Source: a virus
Lineage: Duplodnaviria > Heunggongvirae > Uroviricota > Caudoviricetes
Direction: 5' to 3' (one strand)
Length of the DNA stretch: 26,398 nt
Virus record (IMG/VR): IMGVR_UViG_2534681993_000012
A program made the position numbers and the translations under genes. The notes under the pieces were generated by a model that searched no databases, was not told the DNA's origin, and saw only the letters and a list, made by a program, of their open reading frames with translations. This document shows, piece after piece, positions 121-23,770 of the stretch (position 1 is its first letter; every line of letters begins with the position of its first letter).

Positions 121-451
121 ATCCCCCGCAGAACGCAAAGCCGCGCAGCGCGCTCGGCAGTCCGCCGCCGGTGAGCGCAAAATTGAACTGGTGCTGGATA
201 AGCAGGAGCAGGAAATGCTGGCGCGGAACTGCGCCGCCCGGCGCCCTGGTCGCGATCCCTATGAAATGGCCGAGTACATCGCGCTGCTGATCCGCCAGGA
301 TGATGCACGTGTGCGCGGGCGTATAAAATCGATCAGCAGAAAACGTTGCGGTAAGTGCGGCGAGAGAGTTCCAGTTAATTCATGCCCGTGTAATGGTGAC
401 TCGCAATGCTGGGTGACTAAAGGCTGGCATGAAACGAAATTAATAGCGTGA
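104..451 (+). CDS. hypothetical phage protein with C-terminal Cys cluster (CGKCG...CPCNGDSQC, possible zinc ribbon); start uncertain
   Basis: ORF 104..451 (GTG start); an internal ATG at 215 has a better Shine-Dalgarno (AGGAG, 7-nt spacer). Charged helical N-terminal part, Cys-rich C-terminus. Stop TGA lies inside the 16-bp palindrome at 444-459. Confidence 0.5.
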   Translation: MRFVAKSPAERKAAQRARQSAAGERKIELVLDKQEQEMLARNCAARRPGRDPYEMAEYIALLIRQDDARVRGRIKSISRKRCGKCGERVPVNSCPCNGDSQCWVTKGWHETKLIA

Positions 452-459
452 CATGTCAC
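444..459. repeat. 16-bp motif TAGCGTGACATGTCAC (copy 1 of 2) containing perfect 12-bp palindrome GTGACATGTCAC; candidate protein-binding site
   Basis: Exact 16-mer repeated at 21801-21816. Here it extends to a perfect 14-bp palindrome CGTGACATGTCACG (447-460). Confidence 0.7.
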
Positions 460-500
460 GAGCAGATTATGCATGATGAATTTGACGGGTTTTGAATACT

Positions 501-526
501 GCCGCCAACTATGGCGGCTTTATTTT
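501..526 (+). terminator. intrinsic (rho-independent) terminator
   Basis: GCCGCCA-ACTA-TGGCGGC hairpin (501-518) followed by TTTATTTT (519-526). Lies inside the ORF-track extension of the terS ORF, which argues for the downstream start at 573. Confidence 0.6.
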
Positions 527-530
527 GCAT

Positions 531-562
531 GGTACTATTACCACAACGGTAACTATTACCAC
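531..562 (+). promoter_or_regulatory. tandem direct repeats GGTA(A)CTATTACCAC x2 immediately upstream of terS; candidate late-promoter activator or packaging-recognition site
   Basis: 531-544 GGTACTATTACCAC and 548-562 GGTAACTATTACCAC. The second copy runs into the palindrome ACCACGGTGGT and the terS ribosome-binding site. Confidence 0.45.
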
Positions 563-572
563 GGTGGTTATG

Positions 573-1166
573 ATGCCTGCTGAACCTAAAACCTATAAAC
601 GCAAATCAACGCAATTTAAGCCGCTCACAGCAATGCAGGAGGCTTATTGCCAGTCATACATCAAAACGCCTGAAAACCAGACTCAGGCAGCGATTAACGC
701 AGGATTCTCCCCAAATACAGCGGCAGTTAAAGCCAGTGTCATGATGCGCGATGAACGCATTCAAAAACGGATTGCCGAGTTGATGGAGGAGCGCAACAAA
801 CGAATGCGCGTCAGTGCTGATTACGTTCTCATGCGCCTGGTGGAGATCGACCAGATGGACGTGATCGACATCCTCAACGACGATGGGAGCCTTAAGCCAA
901 TCCGCGAGTGGCCGAAAATCTGGCGCACTACGCTTAGCGGCTTTGATCTGTCATCGACCATCATGAACATGAACGAGGATTCGATAGAGACAATCCTCAA
1001 AAAAATTAAATGGCCTGACAAGGTGAAGAACCTCGAACTGATTGGTAAGCACGTCGACGTCAACGCGTTCAAAGAACGCCTGGATGTTAATGTGAATGTG
1101 ACAATTGCTGATCGCATAGCGGCAGCCAGGAAGCGACTCAAAGAACGTCAGGATGGTAATCAGTGA
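573..1166 (+). CDS. terminase small subunit
   Basis: ORF track 492..1166 (TTG start); preferred start ATG 573 after GGTGG Shine-Dalgarno and downstream of the terminator at 501-526. Basic, helical protein of about 197 aa directly upstream of and overlapping (GTGA) the large terminase. Typical size and position for a terminase small subunit. Confidence 0.75.
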   Translation: MPAEPKTYKRKSTQFKPLTAMQEAYCQSYIKTPENQTQAAINAGFSPNTAAVKASVMMRDERIQKRIAELMEERNKRMRVSADYVLMRLVEIDQMDVIDILNDDGSLKPIREWPKIWRTTLSGFDLSSTIMNMNEDSIETILKKIKWPDKVKNLELIGKHVDVNAFKERLDVNVNVTIADRIAAARKRLKERQDGNQ

Positions 1167-2632
1167 CAGATACAGCGTTATCTCCTGAAGAGCAGTTGAT
1201 CGAGGATATTGCAGGGTTCACTCACGATCCGCTTGGCTATGCCCTCTATGCGTTCCCGTGGGGGGAAGAGGGGACTGAACTGGCACATGCCACCGGCCCA
1301 CGTCAGTGGCAAGCCGATGCGTTCCGAGAGATACGTGATCACCTGCAGAATCCAGAGACGCGCTATCAGCCGCTTATGCTGGCACGCGCTTCGGGGCACG
1401 GTATTGGTAAATCAGCATTCATCTCAATGCTGATCAACTGGGGCATGTCCACTTGCGAGGATTGTAAGGTCGTGGTGACCGCCAACACCGACAACCAGCT
1501 ACGAACGAAGACCTGGCCGGAAATTATCAAGTGGTCGAACCTTGCTATCACGAAAGACTGGTTTACCTGTACCGCTACCGCGATGTACAGCAATGACCCT
1601 GGGCACGACAAGCGGTGGCGGGCTGACGCAATACCCTGGTCTGAGCACAACACTGAGGCATTCGCCGGACTACACAACGAGCGCAAACGCATCATCGTGG
1701 TATTCGATGAAGCGTCGAACATTGCGGATCTGGTGTGGGAAGTTGCTGAGGGTGCGCTTACGGACGAAGACACTGAGATTATCTGGGTGGCGTTCGGAAA
1801 CCCTACACGTAATACCGGGCGTTTTCGCGAATGTTTCCGCAAATACAAACACCGCTGGAAAACTGCGCAGATTGACAGCCGGACGGTGGAAGGTACTAAC
1901 AAACAGCAGTTGCAGAAATGGGTTGATGACTACGGGGAAGACAGCGACTTCGTTAAAATCCGTGTGCGCGGCATATTCCCTGATGCATCTGAATTGCAGT
2001 TTATCCCTACCGGTCTTACTGATGAGGCAATGAAACGGGTGGTAACCGCTGCGCAGGTGGCACATGCTCCGGTGATAATCGGTGTTGACCCGGCATATTC
2101 AGGCGTTGATGACGCGGTGATATACCTGCGGCAGGGGTTGCATAGTAAGGTGCTATGGACTGGCAACAAGACCACTGACGATCTGATTATGGCGAAGCGT
2201 ATCGCTGACTTTGAAGACCAGTACCAGGCTGACGCAGTGTTCATCGACTTCGGTTACGGAACTGGTCTGAAGTCAATCGGTGACGGCTGGGGTCGTACAT
2301 GGCAACTTGTTCCGTTCGGTGGCGCGTCTACTGACCCGCAGATGCTCAACAAGCGTGGGGAGATGTTCAACTCATGTAAGACATGGCTGAGGCTGGGCGG
2401 GATGCTGGATGACCAGGAAACAGCGGACGATCTGTCTGCGGCAGAGTACAAAGTTCGCGTGGACGGTAAAATCGTTATCGAACCGAAGGAAGATATCAAA
2501 GAACGACTTGGGCGTTCACCTGGTAAAGGCGATGCGCTACTGCTGACGTTTGCGTTCCCGGTAGCCAAGAAAACTAATGACCCACGGCAGCAGCAGGGCA
2601 GGGCTATAACAGACTATGACCCATTTGAATGA
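1163..2632 (+). CDS. terminase large subunit (ATPase plus nuclease)
   Basis: 489 aa; Walker A-like ARASGHGIGKS; C-terminal acidic motifs (VIIGVDPAYSGVDDAVIY) consistent with an RNase H-like nuclease domain; position after the small subunit. Confidence 0.9.
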   Translation: MTDTALSPEEQLIEDIAGFTHDPLGYALYAFPWGEEGTELAHATGPRQWQADAFREIRDHLQNPETRYQPLMLARASGHGIGKSAFISMLINWGMSTCEDCKVVVTANTDNQLRTKTWPEIIKWSNLAITKDWFTCTATAMYSNDPGHDKRWRADAIPWSEHNTEAFAGLHNERKRIIVVFDEASNIADLVWEVAEGALTDEDTEIIWVAFGNPTRNTGRFRECFRKYKHRWKTAQIDSRTVEGTNKQQLQKWVDDYGEDSDFVKIRVRGIFPDASELQFIPTGLTDEAMKRVVTAAQVAHAPVIIGVDPAYSGVDDAVIYLRQGLHSKVLWTGNKTTDDLIMAKRIADFEDQYQADAVFIDFGYGTGLKSIGDGWGRTWQLVPFGGASTDPQMLNKRGEMFNSCKTWLRLGGMLDDQETADDLSAAEYKVRVDGKIVIEPKEDIKERLGRSPGKGDALLLTFAFPVAKKTNDPRQQQGRAITDYDPFE

Positions 2633-2635
2633 TTT

Positions 2636-3460
2636 TTACTTTTGTGTTTTTGATTTTCTTTGATAGGTGGAATTTAAATCACCATTTATATTTACTAGAG
2701 GATTATTCAATAATGTACTGATTTCTGGATTGTTAATTCCAGTAACGCCAAATTTCTTTACGGACTCATTAAGGTCTTGTAATGATTTTAGACCTACAAA
2801 CCCATTAGCAATTGTATTATTTGTTGCCAAAGGAATGTTTTCCTTATAGGACTCATATTCGTTTTTTAAATTTTTGTGAGCTTTTTCTAGATTTTCTAGT
2901 TTAGATGTTGTTTCATCAATAACCTTAGATAATTCTAAAATACGAGCTTGTGCTGCGCGCAGTTCTGTCTCCCTCTCTTTCAATTCAGATGTGAGTTGTC
3001 CCATTCTGTCTTTTGAAAGAATTATTTCCTCTTTCATGTCTTGAATGTTTTTTTCAGCGCCTGTTTTTACTTTTTCGTAAGTAATGTCTTTTTTAGCCAG
3101 CAATCTCTGTAGCCGTGTTTCACGTTGTATTTTTCTTGCCTTCCGGTGGTTTTCGATTGAGTCATTATTATCAAGAGGTTTTGCTTGCCATACGTTAATG
3201 ATATTGTTTACCCATGGTAATAGGCAGCAGATAGTAATTACAGATAAGCATGGATAAAACATAACAGTTTTCCATGTGCTGTTATCTGAGATGTATGAAA
3301 TTTTATCTATTATATTTGATTTGCTAAAAAACAGATAAAGAAGTGATTTCCAGTTGAAGGCGCACCAGGACATAACAAAAGCACCAAGCACAGGGTTTTT
3401 GGCTCTATGCACGGCAGTGTTTGCAGTAGATAAAAACAGCTCTTTGAACGATTCAAACAT
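2636..3460 (-). CDS. accessory (moron) membrane protein: two predicted N-terminal TM helices, long coiled-coil, C-terminal globular domain; function unknown (candidate superinfection-exclusion or abortive-infection protein)
   Basis: ORF track 2636..3556; preferred start ATG at 3460 (MFESFKELF...) with AAGGT Shine-Dalgarno, downstream of a TATAAT -10. Hydrophobic segments NPVLGAFVMSWCAFNWKSLLYLFF and VMFYPCLSVITICCLLPWVNNIINVW, then a heptad-rich KE/RL region. Visibly AT-rich relative to the flanking terminase and portal genes. Confidence 0.65.
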   Translation of the reverse strand: MFESFKELFLSTANTAVHRAKNPVLGAFVMSWCAFNWKSLLYLFFSKSNIIDKISYISDNSTWKTVMFYPCLSVITICCLLPWVNNIINVWQAKPLDNNDSIENHRKARKIQRETRLQRLLAKKDITYEKVKTGAEKNIQDMKEEIILSKDRMGQLTSELKERETELRAAQARILELSKVIDETTSKLENLEKAHKNLKNEYESYKENIPLATNNTIANGFVGLKSLQDLNESVKKFGVTGINNPEISTLLNNPLVNINGDLNSTYQRKSKTQK

Positions 3461-3485
3461 ACTAATTACCTTAAAGTTTTTCATG

Positions 3486-3514
3486 ATTATACCTTTAAGG
3501 TAATTTGTGGTCAT
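3486..3514 (-). promoter_or_regulatory. sigma70-like promoter with embedded operator dyad for the membrane-protein gene
   Basis: Minus strand: -35 ATGACC (3514-3509), 17-bp spacer, -10 TATAAT (3491-3486). The dyad aTACCT-TTA-AGGTAA (3489-3503) lies in the spacer and overlaps the -10. Confidence 0.5.
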
Positions 3515-3526
3515 CAGGCAAAAAAA

Positions 3527-3545
3527 TACCCGGCGAACCGGGCGA
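3527..3545 (-). terminator. intrinsic terminator (minus strand only)
   Basis: Minus strand reads CCCGG-TTCG-CCGGG then TATTTTTTT. No U-run on the + strand, so late-operon read-through is not blocked. Confidence 0.5.
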
Positions 3546-3620
3546 ACTGGAAGCAATGAGTTATGCCTTCCGTGGCTGTACTGGTTTACAGCATGAAGTC
3601 ATCGCAATGGCGTCCTGCTG

Positions 3621-3663
3621 TAAAAAGGGCGGTGATAGTCCTTCAAGGGAAACTATCACCGCC
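3621..3663 (-). terminator. intrinsic terminator downstream of the tRNA (minus strand only)
   Basis: 12-bp stem GGCGGTGATAGT/ACTATCACCGCC with 12-nt loop, followed on the minus strand by CTTTTTA. Confidence 0.55.
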
Positions 3664-3706
3664 AAGCACCTGGAACTTCTGGCATCACGGTCCTTAGGCG
3701 TGATTC

Positions 3707-3783
3707 TGGCGTGGCATGCAGGATTCGAACCTGCGACCAACCGCTTAGAAGGCGGTTGCTCTGTCCAACTGAGCTAATGCCAC
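3707..3783 (-). tRNA. tRNA-Arg (anticodon UCU, decodes AGA); phage-borne
   Basis: Minus strand folds as a 77-nt cloverleaf: acceptor GTGGCAT/ATGCCAC, D-arm GCTC...GAGC, anticodon stem ACCGC/GCGGT with loop CTTCTAA (U33-UCU-A37), T-arm GCAGG-TTCGAAT-CCTGC, discriminator G and encoded CCA. Resembles but differs from host argU as I recall it. Confidence 0.85.
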
Positions 3784-4106
3784 AACACTGAGAGCACTTA
3801 GCCTGTTAAGTGCGCCACACTTTGTCGCGGCTCCATAAATGCTCTCATCGTTGTACCCTCGTCTCTTCCGAGGCGTCACACCGAATCGCCGGGATGGTGA
3901 ATCCCCGTGCGCGGAATAAAACCGCTCGACTTGCACATTCCGGCTACCTGGTTCGTTTGCCCGAGCAAGGGAGGGTGCCCCTTAAACGTATCCAGACCGC
4001 TATCGGCGCATGTGCCATACGCCGTACTGCTCAAAATAAAAGCTCACTCCACCTGTTCAATTTAACGATAAGCCAGTCAGGTTAATAACCGGAATGAACA
4101 CTTTAC

Positions 4107-4121
4107 TTACCTGAAAGGTAA
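4107..4121. promoter_or_regulatory. operator-like dyad TTACCT-GAA-AGGTAA (perfect arms)
   Basis: Perfect 6-3-6 inverted repeat. Lies about 320 bp 5' of the tRNA on the minus strand and about 90 bp upstream of the + strand 68-aa gene; the target promoter is ambiguous. Confidence 0.55.
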
Positions 4122-4211
4122 TAATTCGTGCGTTAAATGTCAACTATCTACGATAAATAAATCATATGTGGTTAAATTGGTAATAATTTAATTGCGTACG
4201 GAGTCATTGAT

Positions 4212-4418
4212 ATGTGCATGGGTAGCTCACCGTCAGTGCCTGCAACACCAGAAGTTCAGGCAGCACCACAGGAGCAGGATGCCGCCGTTGTTGATGCCCG
4301 CGACGAAGAAACTCGTCGCCGTCGCGCTGCTGCTGGTCGTAGTTCTACGCTGCTTACCGGTTCTCAGGGCGACACATCAACCGCTAATACCAGCGGTAAA
4401 ACGCTGCTTGGTCAGTAA
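4212..4418 (+). CDS. small hypothetical protein (68 aa) preceding portal
   Basis: ATG with GGAG Shine-Dalgarno; the initiation context GGAGTCATTGA(T)ATG is nearly identical to that of the portal gene (GGAGTCATTGA(A)ATG at 4421-4435). Confidence 0.5.
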   Translation: MCMGSSPSVPATPEVQAAPQEQDAAVVDARDEETRRRRAAAGRSSTLLTGSQGDTSTANTSGKTLLGQ

Positions 4419-4432
4419 CCGGAGTCATTGAA

Positions 4433-6112
4433 ATGGCGGAAACAACTAAAGAGCGATTGAACAAACAGTTCGCACAACTTGAAAGCGAGCGTCAGTCGTT
4501 CGAGCCGCACTGGCGCGAGTTGAGTGATTACATCAACCCGCGTGGTTCCCGCTTTCTGACTTCTGAGGTCAACCGTAACGATCGACGCAATACACGCATT
4601 ATTGATTCGACCGGGACTATGGCGGCGCGCACTCTCGCCAGCGGCATGATGTCAGGCATCACAAGCCCCGCGCGTCCGTGGTTTCGCCTGGCTACGCCAG
4701 ATCCTGAAATGATGGATTATGGCCCTGTTAAGTTGTGGCTTGAGGCAGTGCAGAACCGCATGAACGATATGTTCAATAAGTCGAATCTCTATCAGTCGCT
4801 GCCGCAGTTATACGGAAGCCTCGGCACATACAGCACCGGTGCAATGGCGGTGATGGAGGATGACGAGGACATCATTCGTACAATGCCATTCCCGATAGGA
4901 AGTTACTACCTGGCTAACTCACCTCGTGGCAGTGTGGACACCTGTTTTCGCAAGTTCTCTATGACTGTTCGTCAGCTTGTTCAGGAGTTCGGGCTAAATA
5001 ACGTCAGCGAATCCGTAAAAAGCATGTGGGAAAGCGGCACCTACGAGAAGTGGATTGAAGTGATGCATTCGGTTTACCCGAACATTGACCGCGATACATC
5101 GAAGCTGGATAGCAAGAACAAGCCATTCAAATCGGTTTATTACGAGGTTGGTGGCGATAACGACAGGTTGTTGCGTGAGTCCGGATTCGATGAGTTTCCA
5201 ATTATGGCTCCGCGCTGGGAAGTTAACGGCGAAGATGTTTATGGATCATCATGCCCGGGTATGCTGGCGCTTGGACCTGTTAAGGCATTGCAGCTTCTCC
5301 AGAAGCGCAAGTCGCAGTTGATTGATAAAGCCACCAATCCGCCGATGGTTGCTCCGACTTCCCTCAAGAATCAGCGCGCCTCCCTTCTTCCTGGCGACAT
5401 CACGTATATCGATCAGATTACTGGTCAGGATGGCTTCAGGCCTGCTTATCTGGTTAACCCCAGTACAGCAGATTTGGTGGCAGACATTCAGGACACTCGT
5501 CAAATCATTAACAGCGCCTACTTTGTCGATCTGTTCATGATGTTGCAGAACATCAATACCCGCTCGATGCCTGTTGAAGCGGTGATCGAAATGAAAGAAG
5601 AAAAACTTCTGATGTTGGGGCCGGTTCTGGAGCGTCTGAACGACGAATGTCTTAATCCTCTCATTGACCGCGCTTTCTCGATGATGGTGCGTAAAAACAT
5701 GCTGCCGCCACCGCCTGACGCGATGGAAGGCATGCCCCTGAAGGTCGAATACATTTCCGTCATGGCTCAGGCGCAGAAGTCTATCGGCCTGTCCAGTCTG
5801 GCGTCCACGGTTAACTTCATTGGTCAACTTGCGCAAGCGAAACCAGAAGCTCTCGACAAACTCAACGTTGATCAGGCGATCGATGCATTCGCTGATATGT
5901 CCGGAGTGTCTCCAACCGTCATTGTTCCGCAGGAACAGGTTGAGCAGGCTCGCCAGCAACGGGCACAGCAGCAACAGCAGCAACAAATGATGGCGATGGG
6001 GATGGCGGCGGCACAGGGTGCCAAGACGCTAAGCGAAGCTAAAACTTCGGATCCGAGTGTGTTGTCAGCTATGGCGAATGCAGTTAGTGGTCAGGGTGGG
6101 CAATCACAATGA
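4433..6112 (+). CDS. portal (head-to-tail connector) protein
   Basis: 559 aa; position after terminase; C-terminal Gln/Ala/Met-rich tail (QQQQQQQMMAMGMAAAQGAK) of the kind I recall in podovirus connectors; strong Shine-Dalgarno. Confidence 0.8.
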   Translation: MAETTKERLNKQFAQLESERQSFEPHWRELSDYINPRGSRFLTSEVNRNDRRNTRIIDSTGTMAARTLASGMMSGITSPARPWFRLATPDPEMMDYGPVKLWLEAVQNRMNDMFNKSNLYQSLPQLYGSLGTYSTGAMAVMEDDEDIIRTMPFPIGSYYLANSPRGSVDTCFRKFSMTVRQLVQEFGLNNVSESVKSMWESGTYEKWIEVMHSVYPNIDRDTSKLDSKNKPFKSVYYEVGGDNDRLLRESGFDEFPIMAPRWEVNGEDVYGSSCPGMLALGPVKALQLLQKRKSQLIDKATNPPMVAPTSLKNQRASLLPGDITYIDQITGQDGFRPAYLVNPSTADLVADIQDTRQIINSAYFVDLFMMLQNINTRSMPVEAVIEMKEEKLLMLGPVLERLNDECLNPLIDRAFSMMVRKNMLPPPPDAMEGMPLKVEYISVMAQAQKSIGLSSLASTVNFIGQLAQAKPEALDKLNVDQAIDAFADMSGVSPTVIVPQEQVEQARQQRAQQQQQQQMMAMGMAAAQGAKTLSEAKTSDPSVLSAMANAVSGQGGQSQ

Positions 6113-6405
6113 CAGATTACGAAGACGATCAACTGAAAGAAGAAAACGACCGTAAGCAACGTGACATGGCACAGCGTGAAATTGATGACATTCGCTTTGT
6201 CATGAGCAGTGAACAGGGGCGTCGAGTTGTCTGGTCGGTGCTGGAGAAAGGCCGTGTGTTTTCCGCTATCTCACCGATGGACGCTATGGCAATGGCATTT
6301 AATGAGGGGCAACGCAATCTGGCGCTGGAACTGTTTCAGCGCGTTATGGCGCATTGCCCTGAACAGTATTTGAAGATGGCCAAAGAGGCCAGTGAACAGG
6401 AGTGA
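6109..6405 (+). CDS. small acidic head-assembly-associated protein (98 aa)
   Basis: ATGA overlap with the portal stop; no alternative-frame conflict. Confidence 0.55.
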   Translation: MTDYEDDQLKEENDRKQRDMAQREIDDIRFVMSSEQGRRVVWSVLEKGRVFSAISPMDAMAMAFNEGQRNLALELFQRVMAHCPEQYLKMAKEASEQE

Positions 6406-6407
6406 TC

Positions 6408-7103
6408 ATGAATTTATTTGAGTGTTTGCTGTATAGCCGTCTTTGCAATGAGCAACCAGTCGATGGTGGAGCAGCTCCGGCTGCGTCAGAACCGTCAGCG
6501 CCTGCAGGTGATAACCCTGCTCCAGTTGGTGCTCCATCACAACAGGAAGGTGATAAGCCACAACCTGTTGCTGATGGCGATAAACCTGCTGATGACAAAA
6601 AGCCTGAAAACGATAAGCAGGATGAAAAAAAGGACGGCGATAAACCAGATGGTGCGCCTGAGAAGTACGAGTTTCAGGCTGCCGAAGGCGTAGAGCTGGA
6701 TACAGAAGCATTGAAGGAATTCGAGCCGGTGGCGCGAGAACTAAACCTGACCAACGAGCAAGCGCAAAAGCTGGTTGATGCTTATCCGAAGATTCTGGCA
6801 GGTGTTCAGCAGCGCCAGGCAGAAGCCTGGCAGAAAACAACCGAGCAGTGGGCTGCGGATGTAAAAGCCGACAAAGAAATCGGTGGCGACAAGTTGATTT
6901 CTAACCTTAGCGCCGCACAGCGTGCGCTTGACCAGTTCGGGACACCTGAACTCAAAGAATATCTGAACACCACCGGGCTGGGTAATCACCCTGATCTGGT
7001 CAAAACGTTCGTGAAAATCGGAAAGGCGATGTCTGAAGATGGCATGGTCACCGGTGGTAATGAAGGCCAGCGTAGTGCGGCCGAAGTGCTCTATGGCAAA
7101 TAA
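6408..7103 (+). CDS. scaffolding protein (putative) with Pro/Ala/Asp/Lys-rich disordered N-terminal region
   Basis: ORF track 6402..7103 (GTG); ATG 6408 has better spacing to GGAG. Sits between portal and capsid; low-complexity region with GDKP repeats; helical C-terminal part. Confidence 0.6.
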   Translation: MNLFECLLYSRLCNEQPVDGGAAPAASEPSAPAGDNPAPVGAPSQQEGDKPQPVADGDKPADDKKPENDKQDEKKDGDKPDGAPEKYEFQAAEGVELDTEALKEFEPVARELNLTNEQAQKLVDAYPKILAGVQQRQAEAWQKTTEQWAADVKADKEIGGDKLISNLSAAQRALDQFGTPELKEYLNTTGLGNHPDLVKTFVKIGKAMSEDGMVTGGNEGQRSAAEVLYGK

Positions 7104-7117
7104 GAGAGGAAATGACA

Positions 7118-8104: not shown

Positions 8105-8120
8105 CGCCTGTTATTAACCT

Positions 8121-8140
8121 GTGGGCCGCAACAGGCCCAC
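8121..8140 (+). other. GC-rich hairpin after the capsid gene (no U-tract; possible mRNA stabiliser or processing site)
   Basis: GTGGGCC-GCAACA-GGCCCAC, 17 nt after the capsid stop. Confidence 0.3.
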
Positions 8141-8155
8141 TAATGGAGAAAGAAG

Positions 8156-8593
8156 ATGATCACCGACAAACTGTTGATGTTCTCCGAAGCACAGGCGGTA
8201 ACTGATACCGCGGCTTCTACTGACGTAATCGATCTCGGTCCAATTGACGGAAACCGTCGCGATATCGGTGTGGGTTACCCGCTTGAGTTTTGGGTGCTGG
8301 TTAACGAAGCCGCCACGGCAAGTGGTGAGGCAACTGTAAACATCCAGTTGCAGACGAGTGAGAATAACAGCTCATGGTCCACTATTTATGATAGTGGCGC
8401 ACTGGCAAAGGCTACCCTGACAGCAGGTAAACGAGTTGTTTCTGCAAAGGTGCCTGCCGGTGTTCAGCGATATCTGCGTGTTAACTACTCCGTCGCAACT
8501 GGCCCACTAACGGCCGGCAAATTCACTGCGGGTATCAGTCTGGATGTTGATGCCAATACGCCGTACCCGATCCGCTCAAAAGTAACTGGTTAA
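8156..8593 (+). CDS. virion protein (145 aa; Thr/Ser/Ala-rich, possible head decoration or fibre protein)
   Basis: ATG with GGAGA Shine-Dalgarno; composition typical of beta-rich structural proteins. Confidence 0.6.
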   Translation: MITDKLLMFSEAQAVTDTAASTDVIDLGPIDGNRRDIGVGYPLEFWVLVNEAATASGEATVNIQLQTSENNSSWSTIYDSGALAKATLTAGKRVVSAKVPAGVQRYLRVNYSVATGPLTAGKFTAGISLDVDANTPYPIRSKVTG

Positions 8594-8603
8594 GGTGATA
8601 TCG

Positions 8604-8939: not shown

Positions 8940-8955
8940 GCCTCGCGAATCAGAC

Positions 8956-8977
8956 AAGGGGCTTCGGCCCCTTTATT
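8956..8977 (+). terminator. intrinsic terminator-like hairpin after the head-gene block (probably partial terminator)
   Basis: AAGGGGC-TTCG-GCCCCTT followed by TATT; weak U-tract. Confidence 0.45.
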
Positions 8978-8989
8978 GCAGGAGTGTAT

Positions 8990-13428: not shown

Positions 13429-16175
13429 TGCCAGTTGTTCCTACTACATCCGGACGCCAGGTGCAAAGTCGTGGTGTGCAAACCGGTGGTTTTCAGACCT
13501 TCGATGTTCCTCAAGCAGGTCAGGTGCTGGCGAATGTCGCAGATCAGTATGCGGTGGCATATGGTGAAGCCAGGCAGAAAGCGAATGTTGCTATGGCCCA
13601 GGAGGCGTTACTGCAATTTAACCAATTTGCAGATGACCAGATTAACAACCCTGAAAGTGGGCTGATTTCTAAACAGGGTAAAAACGCTCTTGGTCAGAGT
13701 GACGCTGTTATGAAAAATATGCAGGAAAGGGCTCAGGCATTATTAGGCTCAATTCCTGAAAGTGAGGAAAGGAATAAATTATCCTTTCAACTCCAGCAGT
13801 CTATGCAGTCTTATTACAATCAGGCACGTCGATATGAAGTTGGGCAGTTTCAGCAATTCCAAGATCAAACGTATTTGTCAGGAAATGCATTGGCTGTCAC
13901 TCAGTCTGCGGGGCTATATAGCGATAACCAAGCATTTGTCGATTTAGCCAAGCAGCGATTTGAATCTATTGATCAATACGCTGATGCGCATGGGCTTCCT
14001 GATGAGTGGCGTGTTCAGCAGAAAACTCAGCTCAAGGAACAAATGGGGCAGCAAGCATGGATAGGAAATATCGCTCAAAAATACAACGAGTTTCTTCAGG
14101 TTAATGGAGAGCCAGGTGATCTTGATGGTGTGAGTCGTGCAATATCACATGGTAATTCATTGGATGCTCGTGGTTTACGTAATAATAATCCTGGTAATAT
14201 TGAAGCGAGCAAATCTAACCCGTGGGAAGGTCAGATCGGTAGCGATGGACGTTTTGCAACGTTTGCTACCCCTGAGCATGGAATCCGCGCGTTGGGTAAA
14301 AATATGTTGTCTTACCAGCGTCAAGGCTATGACACCGTTAGCGAGATTGTTAATCGCTATGCTCCGGCTAGTGATGGTAATAATACTGATGCTTATATTA
14401 GGGCATTGTGTGGTGAGCTTGGTGTTGGGGAGAATGATCAGCTTGATATCTCTAACCCAAAGACACTAGCTGCTTTATGTGCTGGGATTATTAAACACGA
14501 AAATGGCAGTATGCCTTATAGCACCGAACAGCTTGAAACTGGTATCTCGGCAGCCCTTGGTCTAACTAACCTTGATTCACCTAAGCGTTATACGGGCAAT
14601 GCGGCATTTGATGCTATGAGCCCTCAAATGCAAATACAGGCATTGAGGCAGGCTAATGAGCTGAGAAATCAGTACCGCCAGCAGTATGCGGACCAGCTTA
14701 GCACCGTAGTTAAAGATGCATATTCAGCCCTTGATGAAGGATTGAAACCTGAGAAGTTACCTTCTGAGGACGATTTTATCCGGGCCAATGGTCCGCGCAT
14801 TGGCGCTATGAAGTGGAAGGATATGCAGGCGCAGATACAATATGGAGGTGTCATTGGTGCCGCTAAAGACCTCACTCCAGAAGGACGACAAGACATTCTT
14901 GAACGTTTACGTCCACAGGATCCAAACGCTCCTGGATTTGCAGCTAACCAGCAACGCTGGGAGAAAATGCAGGCCAAATTTAAAGAGATGGATAGGGAGT
15001 GGGAGATTCAGCAGGGAAGAAACAGGTTCGTGTCTTCAATGCAAAATAACTTCCCGCTGGACCCGAACGACAAAAACAATCAGGCAGCGGTAGACCGTTA
15101 TTTCGCGCAGGATATCGCGCCTTCGTTTTCCATATCTGATCCGCAGAGCATCAATACACTGGTCACCGTCACAACTAAAAGCGGCATGATACCAACTCAG
15201 GTTAAAACAATGCTTAACAGTGGAGCAACATCAAGAGATCCTGCGCTGGTTGTCCCGATGGCAAAATTCTACGGTCAGTTATTCGATAATAATCCGGCGG
15301 CAGCGGCAACACTTGATAAAAGTACGATGGCATTTTACGGCAAGGTTTACGATTATTCCCGCGCTGGCGTGCCGGAGGATAAGGCTGTTGATATGGCTTA
15401 CAGCCAGGTGTTCCAACAGGATGACCGAATGAAACAGATGCTTTCCACTGCCATGCGAGACAAAAAATATGTCGCGGCGAGGGCAACTGCTGCACAAAAT
15501 AACGCCAGCAGTCTGACTTCCTTTGGTTCGTGGTCTCCGGATATTACCGATCCAGGAAAATCAAATGCGGCCTATCAGCGAGATTACCAGACAATTTACG
15601 ATGCTAACTTTGTACAGACAGGTGGCGATGCAGAACAGGCTGAGAAAATGACCAATGCCATGATCAGAACCACCTGGGGAGTTTCTACGGTTAATGGCAA
15701 AGCAGAGGTTATGAAGTATGCACCTGAGGCATTGTACGGAGTAAATAATGGTGCTGGTAACTGGATACAGGGGCAGTGGGAGCAGGAAAAACGCGAGCTT
15801 AAATCAAAATCCTTTGGCGGTCCTCGCAGTGATACGGACTTAATACTTGTTTCTGATGGCCTTACGGCAAGGGATAGGAGTTATGCTGTTATGGTTTTAC
15901 AGCCTGACGCAAACGGAGCGATAGAACCGAGAAATTATATTGGAGAAAATGGTCTCCCTGTTCGTTTCAAGCCGGATCAGCTGACATCTCCAATGTACAG
16001 GCAAACCATTCAGTTCCAGCAACAGCGTGTTGATGAGGCTAGAGTGCGGAGAGAAGGCAATCCGCTGCTGCAGTTCAGCAATAAAGATGGATATACTCCT
16101 CCAGATCTGACCAAACCATTCGGTTATGGTTCAGCCAATTACCTTCCGAGCAATATATACGCAGGGGGCAAATAA
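13428..16175 (+). CDS. large internal core or ejection protein (915 aa) with an embedded AT-richer domain bearing an RNNNPGNI motif (possible cell-wall-acting domain)
   Basis: TGATG coupling; long Q-rich helical regions; motif GLRNNNPGNIEASKSNPWEGQIGSDGRFATFATPEHG at about 14160-14290. Confidence 0.8.
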   Translation: MPVVPTTSGRQVQSRGVQTGGFQTFDVPQAGQVLANVADQYAVAYGEARQKANVAMAQEALLQFNQFADDQINNPESGLISKQGKNALGQSDAVMKNMQERAQALLGSIPESEERNKLSFQLQQSMQSYYNQARRYEVGQFQQFQDQTYLSGNALAVTQSAGLYSDNQAFVDLAKQRFESIDQYADAHGLPDEWRVQQKTQLKEQMGQQAWIGNIAQKYNEFLQVNGEPGDLDGVSRAISHGNSLDARGLRNNNPGNIEASKSNPWEGQIGSDGRFATFATPEHGIRALGKNMLSYQRQGYDTVSEIVNRYAPASDGNNTDAYIRALCGELGVGENDQLDISNPKTLAALCAGIIKHENGSMPYSTEQLETGISAALGLTNLDSPKRYTGNAAFDAMSPQMQIQALRQANELRNQYRQQYADQLSTVVKDAYSALDEGLKPEKLPSEDDFIRANGPRIGAMKWKDMQAQIQYGGVIGAAKDLTPEGRQDILERLRPQDPNAPGFAANQQRWEKMQAKFKEMDREWEIQQGRNRFVSSMQNNFPLDPNDKNNQAAVDRYFAQDIAPSFSISDPQSINTLVTVTTKSGMIPTQVKTMLNSGATSRDPALVVPMAKFYGQLFDNNPAAAATLDKSTMAFYGKVYDYSRAGVPEDKAVDMAYSQVFQQDDRMKQMLSTAMRDKKYVAARATAAQNNASSLTSFGSWSPDITDPGKSNAAYQRDYQTIYDANFVQTGGDAEQAEKMTNAMIRTTWGVSTVNGKAEVMKYAPEALYGVNNGAGNWIQGQWEQEKRELKSKSFGGPRSDTDLILVSDGLTARDRSYAVMVLQPDANGAIEPRNYIGENGLPVRFKPDQLTSPMYRQTIQFQQQRVDEARVRREGNPLLQFSNKDGYTPPDLTKPFGYGSANYLPSNIYAGGK

Positions 16176-19100
16176 TGCCGATATATGAACAGGATCCTAA
16201 AGAGTTGCTTGGCGAGGATATTCAGCAAATAGCAGCACCTGATGACAGTAATTTCTATATGGAAACACCTTCTTTGCTTTCTGCTGTGAACCCATTTACC
16301 AGTGATCAACGCGTTCAAAGGTCTAGACAAGCAGCATTTCGTATAGATAACACGCTGGGTAGCTTTATTGCCAGTGCTCCTTTCAGTCAGTTTGACAGGG
16401 TTGAAGGATATAACCCATTTGATAACGATGCAGCAGATATTAAAGGCTATGAAGATTTTGCAGATTCGTTTATCAACTCCGGTTCGCATGAAGAAACAAT
16501 GGCAATTAAACATCGAATCGATAAGCAAAGAACAGATAGAGAATATCTATCTGAAATGGGTGGTGCTGGTACTATTTCAAGCTTAGCAATGGGAATGATA
16601 GACCCGGTTAATGTGGCTGCAATGTTCATCCCTGTAGGGGCGGTAGCGCGTGGAGGAAGTATTGCTGAGACGGCAGGGCGTTTTGCCCTGGCGAATGCTG
16701 CTGGTGGGGGAGTATCAGAAGCCGCATTACAGGCCACTCAGGAAGCTCGCTCACCGATGGAGAGCGTATCGAACGTTGTTGTTGATGCTCTCGTTGGTGG
16801 GATCCTTGGTGCTGGTGCACAGCTACTTGCTGGACCTAGCGCGCGCGAGGCAGTGGTTAACTCAGTAGGTAATCATTTGCGAGGTATGGATTCTCCTCAA
16901 AGCATTGGTGCAGCTCAGGTTTTCAATACCACACTCGATCAGGAACAGCTCGCTGGACTTGGACTTGCTAACAAAACGTTGAGTGTCACTCCTGCTGGCC
17001 GCTTGGCTCAATCACCATCTCTTGTCTCCCGTCAGATTAACCAGCAGCTTGCCGAAAATAACTATTTCTTCGCCAAAAATGATGAGGGGTTGGCTACGTT
17101 TACGGCAGTCGAGACTAAGATTAAGCAATACGACGCCATGCTTTATAAGCAGATGGAAGCCACTCGTGATGCTTACCAGCAGTACAGCAAATCTGTTAGC
17201 GCCCGCGGCGTGAAGAGGATGAACTTTATTGATTTCAATGAAGCTGTTGGCATGGCTATGCGCCGTGGTGATCAGAGTGATATTCCTGAGGTTTCACAAG
17301 CAGCTGCCAGAATCCGCCCCATTTTCGAGACCACAAAAGCCCGTATGCAGGAACTGGGGATCCTTCCTGAGGATATCGATGTCGTGACGGCGAAAAGTTA
17401 TCTTCCCCGCATTTATAAGTTCGATAAGATACTTTCCGACCGCACTGAATTCAGAGGGCGAATTGCCAACTGGATACAAGGGATTAGTGCCAAAGGTGCT
17501 GACAAAGCAGGTCAGCGAATTGAAAGGATAAATTCATTGCTAAAAACTGCAGAGGAATCGGCACCGCGCGCTGATGCTCTCGCTAGTGAAATCGCTGAAG
17601 CGGAGAAATGGTCTGGTAAAAAAATTCTACTCATGGAAGAACTGGATAAACGAAATAAGCTTATATCTCAGGAGACTGACACACAGGCGCGTCTTACAAG
17701 AATAGAAAAAGAGTTGGCCGAGACTTCATCAGAAAAACTTCAGGCAAGAATGATGAAAGAAAGCTCTGACCTTAAAACACGCCTTGATGATATAGCGCAG
17801 GCAAAGAGTGAGCTTCCTGTCTATCAGCGCCATATGGAGTTGCTGGATAATCCACGGAAATATCGTTCTGAGCTTCGCCGACTGCAAAAACGGGCAAATT
17901 CAACCACAAGGCTGAATGCAAGCCGCGAACGAGCACTGAAGCAGATGGAGCCTCTATCCCGAGAGGAAGCAGAGGACGCTGCTGACGAGATCGTGAATAA
18001 AATAATAGGCGCACCTTCCGGGCTTGTACCAGCCGATATTATCCCAGAGAGACTCGTTGGTCGGGCTGGTTTCACTAAAAGCAGAACGCTGCTTATTCCT
18101 GATGAGCGTATAGAAGATTTTCTTGAATCAGATGTTAACTACATCATGGAAAGTTATCTCCGGCAGGTGGCACCAGAAATTGAGCTGACTGCGCAGTTTG
18201 GCCGTAAAGATATGGGGGAGCAAATCCGTCAGGTTAGTGAGGAATATACCCGGCTAATAAAAGAGGCTAAAACACCTAAACGACGTGCAGTTCTTGAGAA
18301 GCAACGGGAGGCTGATATTAGGGATATTACGGCTATGCGTGATCGACTGCTTGGTACTTACGGTGCACCTCAAGATCCACGCAGTTTCTTTGTTCGTGCC
18401 GGGCGAGTTGCTAGGAATATTAACTTCCTCCGTTTGCTTGGTGGAATGACTGTCTCCGCTGCAACTGATCTGATGCGACCGATGATGCAGCATGGCCTGA
18501 GAAAATCTCTCGGACCAATGGTAAGCATGCTTAAAAATATGGACTCAGTGAAAATTGCAACCAGGGATTTGCGAGAAATGGCCGTTGGGCTTGATTATGT
18601 CCTGTCTACGCGTACAAAGGCTATAGCGGATCTTACTGACCCCTATAGCCGGAGAAGCGCCGCTGAGCGAGGTCTGAACTGGATGACGCAGAAATTCGGT
18701 AACTGGACGCTGATGAATCAGTGGAACAGCGCACTTAAATCATGGTCCGGGATGATAGTGCAGTCGAGGATACTTGACGCGGCTCGCCAAGTTTCTGCTG
18801 GTGGCACGCTCTCCAAAAGTGAAATGCGGAAGATGGCACAGGTCGGCATCAATGAAGATGTTCTGCGCCGAATCGGGGAGCAATTCGGGAAGCACGGAGA
18901 GGATATGGACGGGCTGTTAACCGGGCATAGTCATCTGTGGGATGACCGTTTCGCTAGAGAGATTTTCCAGTCTGCAGTGCTGAAAGATGTAGACTCAGTG
19001 ATTGTAACGCCTGGCGTAGGTGATACACCGCTGTTTTTTAGTAAAGAAGGCTGGAAGATGATCACGCAGTTCAAAACGTTTATCTTCGCACAGCATAACA

Positions 19101-19564
19101 GGGTGCTAGTATCTGGTATCCAGCAGGGCGATGCTGCATTCTATCTTGGTGCGCTTGGCACGATTGCGCTTGGCTCAATGGTCTATATGATGAAACAGAA
19201 GTTAAGCGGTCGCGATATCGACTACAGCTGGAATAACCTTGTGAAAGAGGGGATCGACCGGGGCGGAATGCTTGGCTGGCTCTCTGAGCCGCTGAATACC
19301 GTTGAGAACATAAGCGGCGGTAGGTTTGGTCTTGGCGCGATGTTTGGTGCGCCTCCGGTATCAAGGTTTCAGAGTCGTAATGCTATTGGTGCTTTACTTG
19401 GTCCTACCTTTGATCTTGGCGGTGATGCCGCGACGGTTGCGAATGGTGTACTTAACGGAGAATTTGACAGCCAGCAAACCCACGCGGTCCGTAAAATGCT
19501 ACCTTTTCAGAACCTGTGGGCGATATCACCGTTACTAAATAAAGTTGAAGAGCAGATGAAATAG
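16175..19564 (+). CDS. largest internal core or ejection protein (1129 aa; coiled-coil-rich)
   Basis: TAATG coupling; long charged heptad regions (KLQARMMKESSDLKTRLDDIAQAK...); last gene of the coupled operon, stop TAG 19562-19564. Confidence 0.8.
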   Translation: MPIYEQDPKELLGEDIQQIAAPDDSNFYMETPSLLSAVNPFTSDQRVQRSRQAAFRIDNTLGSFIASAPFSQFDRVEGYNPFDNDAADIKGYEDFADSFINSGSHEETMAIKHRIDKQRTDREYLSEMGGAGTISSLAMGMIDPVNVAAMFIPVGAVARGGSIAETAGRFALANAAGGGVSEAALQATQEARSPMESVSNVVVDALVGGILGAGAQLLAGPSAREAVVNSVGNHLRGMDSPQSIGAAQVFNTTLDQEQLAGLGLANKTLSVTPAGRLAQSPSLVSRQINQQLAENNYFFAKNDEGLATFTAVETKIKQYDAMLYKQMEATRDAYQQYSKSVSARGVKRMNFIDFNEAVGMAMRRGDQSDIPEVSQAAARIRPIFETTKARMQELGILPEDIDVVTAKSYLPRIYKFDKILSDRTEFRGRIANWIQGISAKGADKAGQRIERINSLLKTAEESAPRADALASEIAEAEKWSGKKILLMEELDKRNKLISQETDTQARLTRIEKELAETSSEKLQARMMKESSDLKTRLDDIAQAKSELPVYQRHMELLDNPRKYRSELRRLQKRANSTTRLNASRERALKQMEPLSREEAEDAADEIVNKIIGAPSGLVPADIIPERLVGRAGFTKSRTLLIPDERIEDFLESDVNYIMESYLRQVAPEIELTAQFGRKDMGEQIRQVSEEYTRLIKEAKTPKRRAVLEKQREADIRDITAMRDRLLGTYGAPQDPRSFFVRAGRVARNINFLRLLGGMTVSAATDLMRPMMQHGLRKSLGPMVSMLKNMDSVKIATRDLREMAVGLDYVLSTRTKAIADLTDPYSRRSAAERGLNWMTQKFGNWTLMNQWNSALKSWSGMIVQSRILDAARQVSAGGTLSKSEMRKMAQVGINEDVLRRIGEQFGKHGEDMDGLLTGHSHLWDDRFAREIFQSAVLKDVDSVIVTPGVGDTPLFFSKEGWKMITQFKTFIFAQHNRVLVSGIQQGDAAFYLGALGTIALGSMVYMMKQKLSGRDIDYSWNNLVKEGIDRGGMLGWLSEPLNTVENISGGRFGLGAMFGAPPVSRFQSRNAIGALLGPTFDLGGDAATVANGVLNGEFDSQQTHAVRKMLPFQNLWAISPLLNKVEEQMK

Positions 19565-20005
19565 CTATTCACAATTAGTGATGGCGTATGTATCAAATAT
19601 ATTGCCATCACTAAATACATACCTATACTCAATCTCTCCGCCAAGGTGAATAAATGCTTTCATTTGCCTGTTGGAGCAAATGCTCGATTTTGAATAATTT
19701 CGCATTACACTCTTTAATTTATTTTCTAAGGTTACATCACCATTATAAACTTTTGATAAATAGCTGTTGTTGTAATTAAGATGCGCTACAACTAAAAGTT
19801 TGTTTAGTATTGCATTTATTGAAACAATAGACATATTATCATTCAATTTTATGGGAAGTGACTTTCCTGCTTCTGATGCAATTTTGTTTGCATGTGCACA
19901 CATATCCTCATTTATTAAATTCTTAAAACATATGTCGTTTGCAAACGAAAAAATTGGTAGGATAAACAAAACGGTAGCTGTAATAGCGTGCATCGGCTTA
20001 ATCAT
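19565..20005 (-). CDS. secreted or periplasmic moron protein (146 aa) with Sec signal peptide; function unknown
   Basis: N-terminus MIKPMHAITATVLFILPIFSFA then NDI (signal peptide); four Cys; very AT-rich. Its stop (CTA, 19565-19567) directly abuts the stop of the 1129-aa gene. Confidence 0.55.
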   Translation of the reverse strand: MIKPMHAITATVLFILPIFSFANDICFKNLINEDMCAHANKIASEAGKSLPIKLNDNMSIVSINAILNKLLVVAHLNYNNSYLSKVYNGDVTLENKLKSVMRNYSKSSICSNRQMKAFIHLGGEIEYRYVFSDGNIFDTYAITNCE

Positions 20006-20205
20006 TAGGTGACCTTTATGTTCAAGAAGATGATCAACAGATTAATCGGTGGTAAGGAGGTTAGCAATAAAATTCAACCTCTTATCTTTAAGGATAACTT
20101 TTCAGCTTTTGAGTATGCGTGTAAGTATCTTGACACAAGCCTTTCAGCCAATAAACCAATGCCAGCCATCATCATACCTGGTCCAAGTGGGGAACAGCCA
20201 GTTTT

Positions 20206-20210
20206 GCTAG
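20206..20210. repeat. IS2 target-site duplication (GCTAG), left copy
   Basis: The same 5-mer directly flanks both IS2 ends. Confidence 0.8.
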
Positions 20211-20221
20211 TGGATTTGCCC

Positions 20222-21127
20222 CTATATTTCCAGACACCTGTTATCACTTAACCCATTACTGGCTTGCTGCCGTAGATATTCCCGTGGCGAGCGATAACCC
20301 AGTGCACTATGCGGATGCCATTCGTTATAATGCTCGAACGCCTCTGCAAGGTTCTTTGCTGCCGTTAACCCGTCTGGTTTGGGCATGACACTGATGTAGT
20401 CACGCTTTATCGTTTTCACGAAGCTCTCTGCTATGCCGTTACTCTCCGGACTCCGCACCGCCGTGCTCTTCGGTTCAAGCCCCAACATCCGGGCAAACTG
20501 CCGTGTTTCATTAGCCCGGTAGCATGAACCATTATCCGTCAGCCACTCTACTGGAGACGCCGGAAGCTCGTTGCCGAAGCGGCGTTCCACCGCTCCCAGC
20601 ATGACGTCCTGTACTGTTTCACTGTTGAAGCCGCCCGTAGTGACCGCCCAGTGCAGTGCCTCACGGTCACAGCAGTCCAGCGCGAACGTGACTCGCAGTT
20701 TTTCTCCGTTATCACAGCGGAACTCGAACCCGTCAGAGCACCATCGCTGATTACTTTCTTTCACAGCCACTCTGCCTGTATGTGCCCGTTTCGATGGCGG
20801 TACAGCAGGTTTTCGCTCAAGCAACAGCGCATTCTGGCGCATGATCCGGTAAACACGTTTGGCATTGATCGCAGGCATACCATCAAGTTCTGCCTGTCTG
20901 CGAAGCAGCGCCCATACCCGACGATAACCATACGTGGGCAGCTCTCCGATAACATGGTGTATACGGAGAAGCACATCCGTATCATCAGTGTGACGACTGC
21001 GGCGGCCATCCATCCAGTCATCGGTTCGTCTGAGAATGACGTGCAACTGCGCACGCGACACCCGGAGACAACGGCTGACTAAGCTTACTCCCCATCCCCG
21101 GGCAATAAGGGCGCGTGCGCTATCCAC
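20222..21127 (-). CDS. insD: IS2 transposase OrfB (InsD)
   Basis: 301-aa translation [23 protein letters not shown]... recognised as IS2 InsD. Overlaps insC in the -1 frame with slippery CAAAAAAG at 21127-21134 (programmed frameshift typical of the IS3 family). Confidence 0.9.
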
Positions 21128-21450
21128 TTTTTTGCCCGTCCATATTCAACGGCTTCTTTGAGGAGTTCATTTTCCATCGTTTTCTTGCCGAGCAGGCGCT
21201 GGAGTTCTTTAATCTGCTTCATGGCGGCAGCAAGTTCAGAGGCAGGAACAACCTGTTCTCCGGCGGCGACAGCAGTAAGACTTCCTTCCTGGTATTGCTT
21301 ACGCCAGAGAAATAACTGGCTGGCTGCTACACCATGTTGCCGGGCAACGAGGGAGACCGTCATCCCTGGTTCAAAGCTCTGCTGAACAATTGCGATCTTT
21401 TCCTGTGTGGTACGCCGTCTGCGTTTCTCCGGTCCTAAGACATCAATCAT
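21085..21450 (-). CDS. insC: IS2 OrfA (InsC), HTH protein
   Basis: [25 protein letters not shown]...; ATG 21450 follows GGAGA. The ORF-track extension to 21495 lacks a ribosome-binding site. Confidence 0.85.
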
Positions 21451-21541
21451 CTGCTCTCCAATGACTAGTCTAAAAACTAGTATTAAGACTATCACTTAAA
21501 TAAGTGATACTGGTTGTCTGGAGATTCAGGGGGCCAGTCTA

Positions 21542-21546
21542 GCTAG
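21542..21546. repeat. IS2 target-site duplication (GCTAG), right copy
   Basis: See left copy. Confidence 0.8.
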
Positions 21547-21800
21547 ATTCTGGAAGACAAAGGGCAATGCTGAAGGTGTGCTCAGCTGATGGTGGATTTT
21601 TTGTTATTGCCGATTCATCTTACAGCAAAGGACCAAAGCTGAGGATTGGTGATCTTGTTGCTTGGTTGCCTGTGAGTTATGCCGAAGAATTAACGGATAA
21701 AATAGAAGATCCTCGCTCCGCTATGGTTGGCTTTATATTGGGAACCATTCATCCTGAACTAACATCTACTGGCTGGAAGGGTAAAGAAAGATTTCGCAAG

Positions 21801-21816
21801 TAGCGTGACATGTCAC
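21801..21816. repeat. 16-bp motif TAGCGTGACATGTCAC (copy 2 of 2)
   Basis: Exact repeat of 444-459; here its first 3 nt are the stop codon of the IS2-disrupted gene and it is followed at once by a terminator. Confidence 0.7.
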
Positions 21817-23742: not shown

Positions 23743-23770
23743 GGTGGTTATCTCCACTTAGTGATTTTAA

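Follow-up and report, generated by a model that had tools for sequence, protein, structure and literature searches.

The viral sequence IMGVR_UViG_2534681993_000012, 26,398 nt in length and here called the window in its entirety, is an epsilon15/phiV10-like (Uetakevirus) prophage. It carries two copies of a perfect 12-bp palindrome, GTGACATGTCAC, at 448-459 and 21805-21816 (no strand assigned). The first copy supplies the stop codon of a gene at 113-451 (+ strand), which encodes a 112-aa protein with a ribbon-helix-helix (RHH) DNA-binding fold. Taken as a whole, comparison of this gene and palindrome across many phages is best explained by a palindrome that acts as cognate cis site for the 113-451 protein and is located at the ends of genes and gene modules. 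This reading is considered probable, and within it an action as a barrier or insulator is favoured.

The palindrome was noticed as part of a longer repeat. An original prediction, made from the window alone, described an identical 16-mer occurring twice with a perfect palindrome inside it, and both exact copies of TAGCGTGACATGTCAC were refound at 444-459 and 21801-21816, each containing GTGACATGTCAC. The repeat had been called unlikely by chance. For this, the window on its own gives moderate support: a repeated exact 16-mer of any sequence arises in 17 of 200 dinucleotide shuffles of the window, and a repeated 12-bp perfect palindrome in 1 of 200. That the repeat is not a chance event was settled because relatives carry it, with three copies in epsilon15, two in TL-2011b, and two plus one with a single mismatch in phiV10. 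The relatives also correct the size of the unit, which is not 16 bp but 12 bp, or 14 bp with the flanking pyrimidine and purine. The general form of the motif is (Y)GTGAC-NN-GTCAC(R), with the pattern string GTGACNNGTCAC. The flanking TAGC is replaced in relatives by tagt, tatc, gagc or gttt, and its identity between the two window copies is, on this comparison, coincidental.

Both 16-mers overlap the stop codon of a plus-strand gene, as had been claimed, but at copy 1 this stop is the TGA at 449-451 inside the palindrome (open reading frame (ORF) 104-451) and not a TAG. At copy 2, the stop is the TAG at 21801-21803, which ends a gene fragment whose body is interrupted by IS2. The palindrome follows 1 nt past this TAG, between convergent genes. 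A terminator within 0 to 45 bp of each copy had also been proposed, and one was found 41 nt past copy 1 and one directly abutting copy 2. A one-mismatch variant, GTGACATGGCAC, lies at 6161-6172 (no strand assigned) inside a gp5-like ORF (6109-6405). One-mismatch matches at a similar offset recur in many relatives, and the variant may be a weak site or a coincidence or constraint of the coding sequence.

Related prophages with the same genes were the place where the original prediction could have failed, and there the motif is present, in epsilon15, phiV10, TL-2011b and IMG/VR relatives alike. In epsilon15, exact copies are found at the gp49 stop codon, just past the terL terminator, and at the gp18 stop codon just before a terminator. 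In phiV10, the post-terL and gp18-type copies are exact and the position equivalent to gp49 has one mismatch; TL-2011b has two exact copies. The position of copy 1 is kept in all three phages, in phiV10 with its mismatch, and that of copy 2 recurs in phiV10 (19493), epsilon15 (19517), TL-2011b (32282) and IMG/VR loci. When 80 IMG/VR loci were picked solely because they encode the 113-451 protein, an exact palindrome was found to overlap the stop codon of its gene in 78. The DNA 3' of this stop-codon palindrome belongs to at least four unrelated classes, including a terminator with terS, another gene with its ribosome-binding site (RBS), and a umuD-like moron with a LexA box. The post-terL copy is also present in about three quarters of the 80 loci. 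Where copy 2 lies, the palindrome and terminator stay the same while the cargo abutting them upstream takes at least eight different forms. The epsilon15 record annotates repressor, IHF, RNase III and integrase sites and does not mark the motif.

The umuD-like (S24 peptidase-like) gene of some relatives (L178, L183, L196 and L201) lies between the palindrome and terS, about 20 to 400 nt past the regulator stop, and has its own TTGACT...TATACT promoter with a perfect LexA box, TACTGTTTAAATATACAGTA. The idea that cargo at copy 1 is bracketed by two palindromes was rejected, as the second copy in the umuD-carrying relatives is the ordinary post-terL copy.

The pairing of motif and gene extends far beyond the close relatives. 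Homologues with 29-46% protein identity keep GTGAC-NN-GTCAC on or beside their gene or elsewhere in the genome. The TGA stop of the homologue is overlapped by GTGACTGGTCAC in N15 (39269) and phiKO2 (41939), by GTGACGCGTCAC in the Yersinia P2-like phage vB_YenM_56.17 (8468), by GTGACTGGTCAC and GTGACCGGTCAC in two Pseudomonas phages (L216, 10387; L217, 6035), and by GTGACAGGTCAC in a Vibrio phage (L219, 10354). In L220, the motif is found 15 nt 5' of the homologue's start codon. Other genomes carry sites away from the gene: three in Vibrio phage K308, one of them 31 bp before terS; two in L207, one of them 11 nt before terS; and one or more in each of L203, L218 and L173. Each genome has exactly one homologue, and palindromic sites number from one to four per genome. 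In seven complete genomes encoding the protein, 17 sites were counted, with 0.27 expected from base composition. Lambda, P22 and the part of P2 searched, all of which lack the gene, have zero sites. This recurrence of the motif with distant homologues in quite different phages is the decisive evidence for the pairing.

Several arrangements in these distant lineages deserve mention in their own right. In the Serratia locus L218 (12475-12509), two GTGACGCGTCAC sites lie 23 bp apart between a Bro-N gene and a convergent helix-turn-helix (HTH) gene, the sole tandem pair seen. Further site pairs occur in N15-like phage-plasmids, at 28550 and 33237 in N15 (L213) and at 31182 and 36062 in phiKO2 (L211), and L204 has a site at 1092. 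One of the extra sites lies in the leader of the secondary-immunity (antirepressor) region, just past a promoter-like TATAAA, and the other within the repA replicase gene, about 620 bp in. These positions hint at a role of the protein in the control of immunity or replication in these phage-plasmids. L204 also carries GGGACCATGGTCCC three times (3804, 9481 and 12236), another palindromic site scattered through a phage genome, which resembles the dispersed SopB-type centromere sites annotated in phiKO2. In the two Pseudomonas phages (L216, 10390-10670; L217, 6038-6330), the regulator gene and its palindrome come first, then a strong sigma-70-like promoter, then about 200 nt of leader with two to three intrinsic terminators, and finally the lysis genes, a layout that resembles lambda PR'-tR'.

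The 113-451 gene may start at GTG 113 or GTG 104. Its product combines a basic N-terminal helix with the RHH domain, followed by a long helix and a Cys-rich zinc ribbon, and is a member of the family of epsilon15 gp49, phiV10 p55 and N15 gp46 (PHROG 536, labelled 'transcriptional regulator'), for which Pfam and NCBIfam hold no model. Among 1.84 billion representative proteins, 149 clusters of homologues were found. An alignment of 40 members is conserved in the basic N-terminal helix (AERKxAQRxR), in the core (RRPG..PY..EYIxLLIR) and in the Cys-rich C-terminal segment. The hosts of most phages encoding the protein are Enterobacterales or Vibrio. In several lineages, the gene is the last of an early operon, just 5' of packaging or lysis genes. 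Two other assignments were dropped: a weak TraR lead for the C-terminal domain, which gave no informative match when modelled alone, and an HNH endonuclease beside terS, which lacks Pfam or NCBIfam support and for which the fold is instead RHH.

The architecture of the site points to its mode of recognition. The half-sites GTGAC and GTCAC are invariant, and the centre is AT, GC, AC, TG, CG or AG according to lineage. A pyrimidine precedes GTGAC at 16 of 16 half-sites; only unbiased sites (window, epsilon15 and N15) were counted, as the flank logo from the IMG/VR scan is biased by the AG flank used in it. The original prediction regarded the palindrome as a poor hairpin, and folding it as RNA bears this out (-1.2 kcal/mol, z = -0.03, no better than shuffles). 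The invariant half-sites, free centre and negligible hairpin therefore suggest that the DNA is read directly by a protein, and not as an RNA structure. The dimeric protein-binding site that had been proposed is strongly favoured by the invariant half-sites and variable centre, although it is a putative site deduced from sequence comparison.

A census of the exact 12-mer yielded 88 distinct contexts, 23 of which are coding coincidences. Among the 65 non-coding contexts, 28 have an ORF of at least 60 aa that stops at the palindrome's TGA, another 28 lie within 45 bp past a stop, and nine are otherwise intergenic. Many matches in the IMG/VR scan with the 14-mer were likewise coding coincidences (e.g., the Q antiterminator N-terminus MRDMSQ) and were set aside. 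A terminator-like site was found near 27 of the 65 non-coding contexts and near none of the 23 coding ones. The predicted neighbourhood of motif and terminator is frequent but not general, many copies lying directly before the RBS of the next gene or before a LexA-controlled moron. The palindrome itself lacks the stable GC-rich hairpin and U tract of an intrinsic terminator; the true terminators are the separate hairpins at 501-518 and 21817-21834.

MatP organises the Ter macrodomain of E. coli and its relatives, interacting with MukBEF and ZapB in its role at the chromosome terminus. We know of no link between the phage protein and MukBEF or ZapB. The E. coli MatP site is GTGACRNYGTCAC, with the consensus GTGACATTGTCAC (PMC6907758; PMC8669397), and MatP reads this matS site by helix alpha4 and the RHH strand beta1 (PMC8669397). 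The half-sites of the phage motif are identical to those of matS but one base closer, with a spacer of 2 bp instead of 3 bp. In 1.2 Mb of loci encoding the protein, all 133 GTGAC..GTCAC sites with a 2-3 bp spacer have 2 bp and none has 3 bp; neither window site fits the 13-bp matS form. In the phage protein, a conserved basic helix immediately precedes the RHH strand. A single 13-bp GTGACACCGTCAC, which fits the canonical matS consensus, is present in Vibrio phage K308 (L210) at 19491-19503, where it overlaps the TGA stop of a coding sequence (19249-19494). K308 otherwise uses the 12-bp form, and about 0.01 such 13-bp sites would be expected by chance in its genome.

The observations are the motif and its conservation, the statistical excess of sites, the coupling to one gene and the fold of the encoded protein, and from these we infer how the two would interact and to what effect. 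A dimer of the protein would bind the palindrome as MatP binds matS, with paired RHH beta-strands over the variable centre and the basic N-terminal helices (AERKxAQRxR) reading the GTGAC half-sites. The gene holds one site within its own stop codon, so that protein and site are inherited as one portable module. Further copies close other gene modules on their 3' side, in the window the structural/cargo block (21805), and most relatives also have a copy just after terL. At these junctions, the bound protein could serve as a barrier or insulator acting on RNA polymerase that crosses from one transcription unit to the next, like the stoperators of mycobacteriophages. This action is favoured because the sites are found at stop codons and in the gaps between transcription units, often with a terminator close by. 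Next in likelihood comes a MatP-like bridging of the sites.

Several observations weigh against this interpretation. The link between protein and palindrome is one of correlation and co-occurrence, and three genomes that encode the protein (L204, L218 and L173) have no site at the gene itself. The geometry of site and terminator is inconsistent, with sites lying 41 nt before, directly before or directly after one. The gene is located in an early lytic operon, unlike that of the stoperator repressor. Across the lineages compared, the residues of the beta-strand showed no clean covariation with the central dinucleotide: the TG centre occurs both in N15 and in Pseudomonas L216, whose beta strands differ. 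Such covariation had looked promising in four lineages and was abandoned when the Pseudomonas and Vibrio lineages did not fit. The zinc-ribbon part, modelled alone, gave no informative structural match and no clue to a partner. As to the MatP-like mode, comparison of the family profile with E. coli MatP by hhalign (using a sequence verified against PDB 4d8j) returned a probability of 0.2%, and the MatP Pfam models PF06303 and PF17414 were matched by none of 40 homologues, even at E <= 10. Homology in sequence to MatP was rejected on the hhalign result and the missing MatP_C match. A search for MatP homologues gave near-identical sequences only, from which no useful MatP profile could be made. 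A MatP-like binding mode is suggested only by the resemblance of fold and site.

Other explanations can be taken in order of how well they survive. The palindrome could be a cassette junction, a recombination joint for module swapping by a site-directed or short-homology route, with any protein binding being secondary to it. At all three Uetakevirus positions, mosaic breakpoints fall at the edge of the palindrome, and copy 2's position, with its many cargos, is of the kind that such a joint would give. An 'empty' site (L048 and L095: the stop of a scaffold-like gene, palindrome, terminator) can be set beside an 'occupied' one (L173: palindrome at 15507, a 190-aa ORF, palindrome at 16121, terminator), and the L173 ORF is homologous to the phiV10 p03-type cargo by the post-terL copy, with the palindrome 4 bp past the stop in both. 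However, any cis element under selection should have breakpoints at its edge even if it plays no part in recombination, 12 bp is short for homologous exchange, and no recombinase co-occurs with the motif. A joint would also leave unexplained why the motif tracks a single RHH gene across unrelated phages and why only its half-sites are conserved. We regard this explanation as unlikely.

A lambda Q-like late-gene switch, for which the palindrome would be the loading or recognition site and which would activate a promoter or render polymerase resistant to terminators, is doubtful. It would suit a gene that closes the early operon just before packaging or lysis genes, the window terminator 41 nt downstream of copy 1, and the Pseudomonas phages, where a strong promoter of the TTGACA-17-TATAAG type and a terminator-rich leader lie 51-55 bp past the site. 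It fits poorly elsewhere. Epsilon15 and the window differ by 18 bp in how far the predicted terS promoter lies from the site, copies directly before the RBS of the next gene leave no room for a promoter, and those that end the late operon have nothing to switch on. N15 and P2-like phages already have Q-type or apparent Ogr-type late regulators, and the epsilon15 record places repressor operators, not the motif, at the late promoters.

Could the phage module be no transcription factor at all, but an analogue, or even the evolutionary source, of MatP-matS? It would then mark phage DNA in a way that unloads or excludes the host's SMC (structural maintenance of chromosomes) complexes (MukBEF in enterics, Mks/Wadjet-type complexes elsewhere), or tether or bridge it. 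This would explain why a single in-gene site suffices, why the module moves among phage-plasmids and podo-, myo- and siphophages, and why matS has the same half-sites. We hold it to be improbable.

Still less probable is a mimic of a host-factor site, read by host MatP or another host protein. The half-sites identical to matS, the canonical 13-bp site on a stop codon in K308 and the mostly enterobacterial or Vibrio hosts would be in keeping with it. Host MatP is an unlikely reader, however, because the spacing differs, no 13-bp site was found in the 1.2 Mb of loci encoding the protein, and the coupling of motif to one phage gene persists in Pseudomonas phages. To our knowledge, their hosts lack MatP, going by the distribution of MatP, MukBEF and SeqA. 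An element acting in RNA, as a hairpin of the 3' untranslated region that aids termination or mRNA stability or as a stop/restart signal (UGA-C-AUG), is extremely unlikely: the palindrome is transcribed at gene ends, often by terminator hairpins, with TGA and ATG on both strands, but its fold is no better than that of shuffles, stems show no compensatory changes across lineages (the signature of readout of sequence), its position relative to terminators is inconsistent, and the internal ATG opens no conserved ORF.

The cognate-site reading is best seen against the layout of the window. The 113-451 gene, last of the early-right genes, is followed by terS (492/573-1166) and terL (1163-2632). The intrinsic terminator at 501-526 (+; stem 501-518 of seven pairs, then TTTATTTT) ends the early-right operon and is kept in relatives. 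Past terL lies a variable cargo region, up to the portal gene, with a 306-aa coiled-coil-like ORF (2636-3556, minus strand; PHROG 4780) and an adjoining tRNA-Arg (3707-3783, minus strand; anticodon TCT). This ORF stands in the place of the p03-type cargo and palindrome of phiV10 and epsilon15, and the window lacks the post-terL palindrome because different cargo occupies that position. The portal-to-tail genes extend to 19564, followed by one small minus-strand gene. A PHROG 9944 cargo gene is split by a complete IS2 of 1331 bp (20211-21541, minus strand), which is flanked by GCTAG as a 5-bp target duplication. Truncated by the IS2, the N-terminal part has its start at ATG 20017, and the C-terminal part (21567-21803, +), which matches profile positions 72-149 of 149, ends beside copy 2. 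The intrinsic terminator at 21817-21842 (+; stem 21817-21834 of six GC pairs, then TGTTTTT) corresponds to an annotated terminator in phiV10. It stands between the late operon and a convergent block, and its T tract is on the plus strand only. Past it, convergent minus-strand genes encode a membrane protein, a YafO-like protein and Bro-N/Ant. The block (22083-22908 and 23032-23757, minus strand), with a weakly YafO-toxin-like ORF (170 aa), an overlapping 108-aa partner and the Bro-N/antirepressor gene, is moron-like and reads toward the late operon.

Two neighbouring inverted repeats lie just 3' of the first terminator and overlap the terS start, ATTACC-ACAAC-GGTAAC (537-553) and ATTACC-ACGGT-GGTTAT (555-571). 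They fit ATTACC-N5-GGTAAT, the form of the sites that the epsilon15 record annotates for repressor binding, and are therefore taken as operators of the epsilon15-type repressor, not as part of the palindrome system. On this match, terS seems to be transcribed from a repressor-controlled promoter of its own (TGgTACTAT, about 530-538). The palindrome as prophage repressor operator was rejected, since the operators annotated in epsilon15 are these other sites. It was also rejected as a late promoter: GTGACA as a -35 element matches at only 9/12, and the geometry is inconsistent. Nor do the sites overlap promoters in the way of operators, the window copies lying at gene 3' ends and many others abutting the next RBS.

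No paper containing GTGACATGTCAC was found in the literature searched, and the papers examined on N15, ZX5 and polylysogeny are silent on gene and motif; the motif, the protein family and their pairing appear to be undescribed. The pairing offers a testable DNA target for a widespread family, labelled 'hypothetical' or 'transcriptional regulator', that ranges over phages and phage-plasmids of E. coli, Salmonella, Klebsiella, Yersinia, Serratia, Vibrio and Pseudomonas. As the site marks exact junctions of cargo exchange, it may help to explain how modules are partitioned or transcription is insulated in these genomes, and it is a simple annotation marker of module boundaries. If binding is true, the pair would form a compact protein-operator system for engineering. 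Its half-sites, identical to those of matS, also raise the question of whether a phage system is related to the bacterial terminus organiser or targets it.

Among known systems, the stoperators of Cluster A mycobacteriophages (L5 gp71-type) are sites in short intergenic spaces that have been proposed to stop elongating RNA polymerase and not initiation (PMC9283540). The phage motif is likewise a short putative protein site scattered through a phage genome at gene ends in short intergenic spaces, and 56 of the 65 non-coding contexts lie on a stop codon or within 45 bp past one. However, the analogy fails on symmetry, copy number and the identity of the reader. Stoperators are asymmetric, orientation-dependent 13-mers, with more than 20 per genome, bound by a monomeric HTH immunity repressor made in lysogens, whereas the motif is palindromic and sparse, its proposed reader is an RHH protein of the lytic operon, and the repressor of this group uses ATTACC-N5-GGTAAT. 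Integron attC sites are imperfect palindromes of 55-140 bp with R and L boxes read by IntI, in contrast to a 12-bp perfect or near-perfect palindrome, and the gene tables of the loci examined list no integron integrase; the likeness to attC is limited to position at cassette 3' ends. As with pac within terS and parS within parB, a cis site in or abutting the gene of its binder keeps the two linked in horizontal exchange. Those modules involve other protein families and functions; here there is no partition ATPase, no dependence on terminase and no evidence of packaging or segregation. MatP differs in having a four-helix bundle and a coiled coil, both lacking in the phage protein, which has a zinc ribbon instead, is phage-encoded, has a site in its own stop codon and is also present in Pseudomonas phages. 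Arc, Mnt, CopG, MetJ and antitoxins similarly combine an RHH fold with a symmetric DNA site near the regulator gene, but a classical RHH operator lies across the promoter of the operon under its control and is usually occupied by at least two dimers, whereas the phage site lies at gene 3' ends, outside recognisable promoters. An RHH protein with a palindromic site is of a known kind, and what is notable here is the arrangement of the site at gene and module ends and its likeness to matS.

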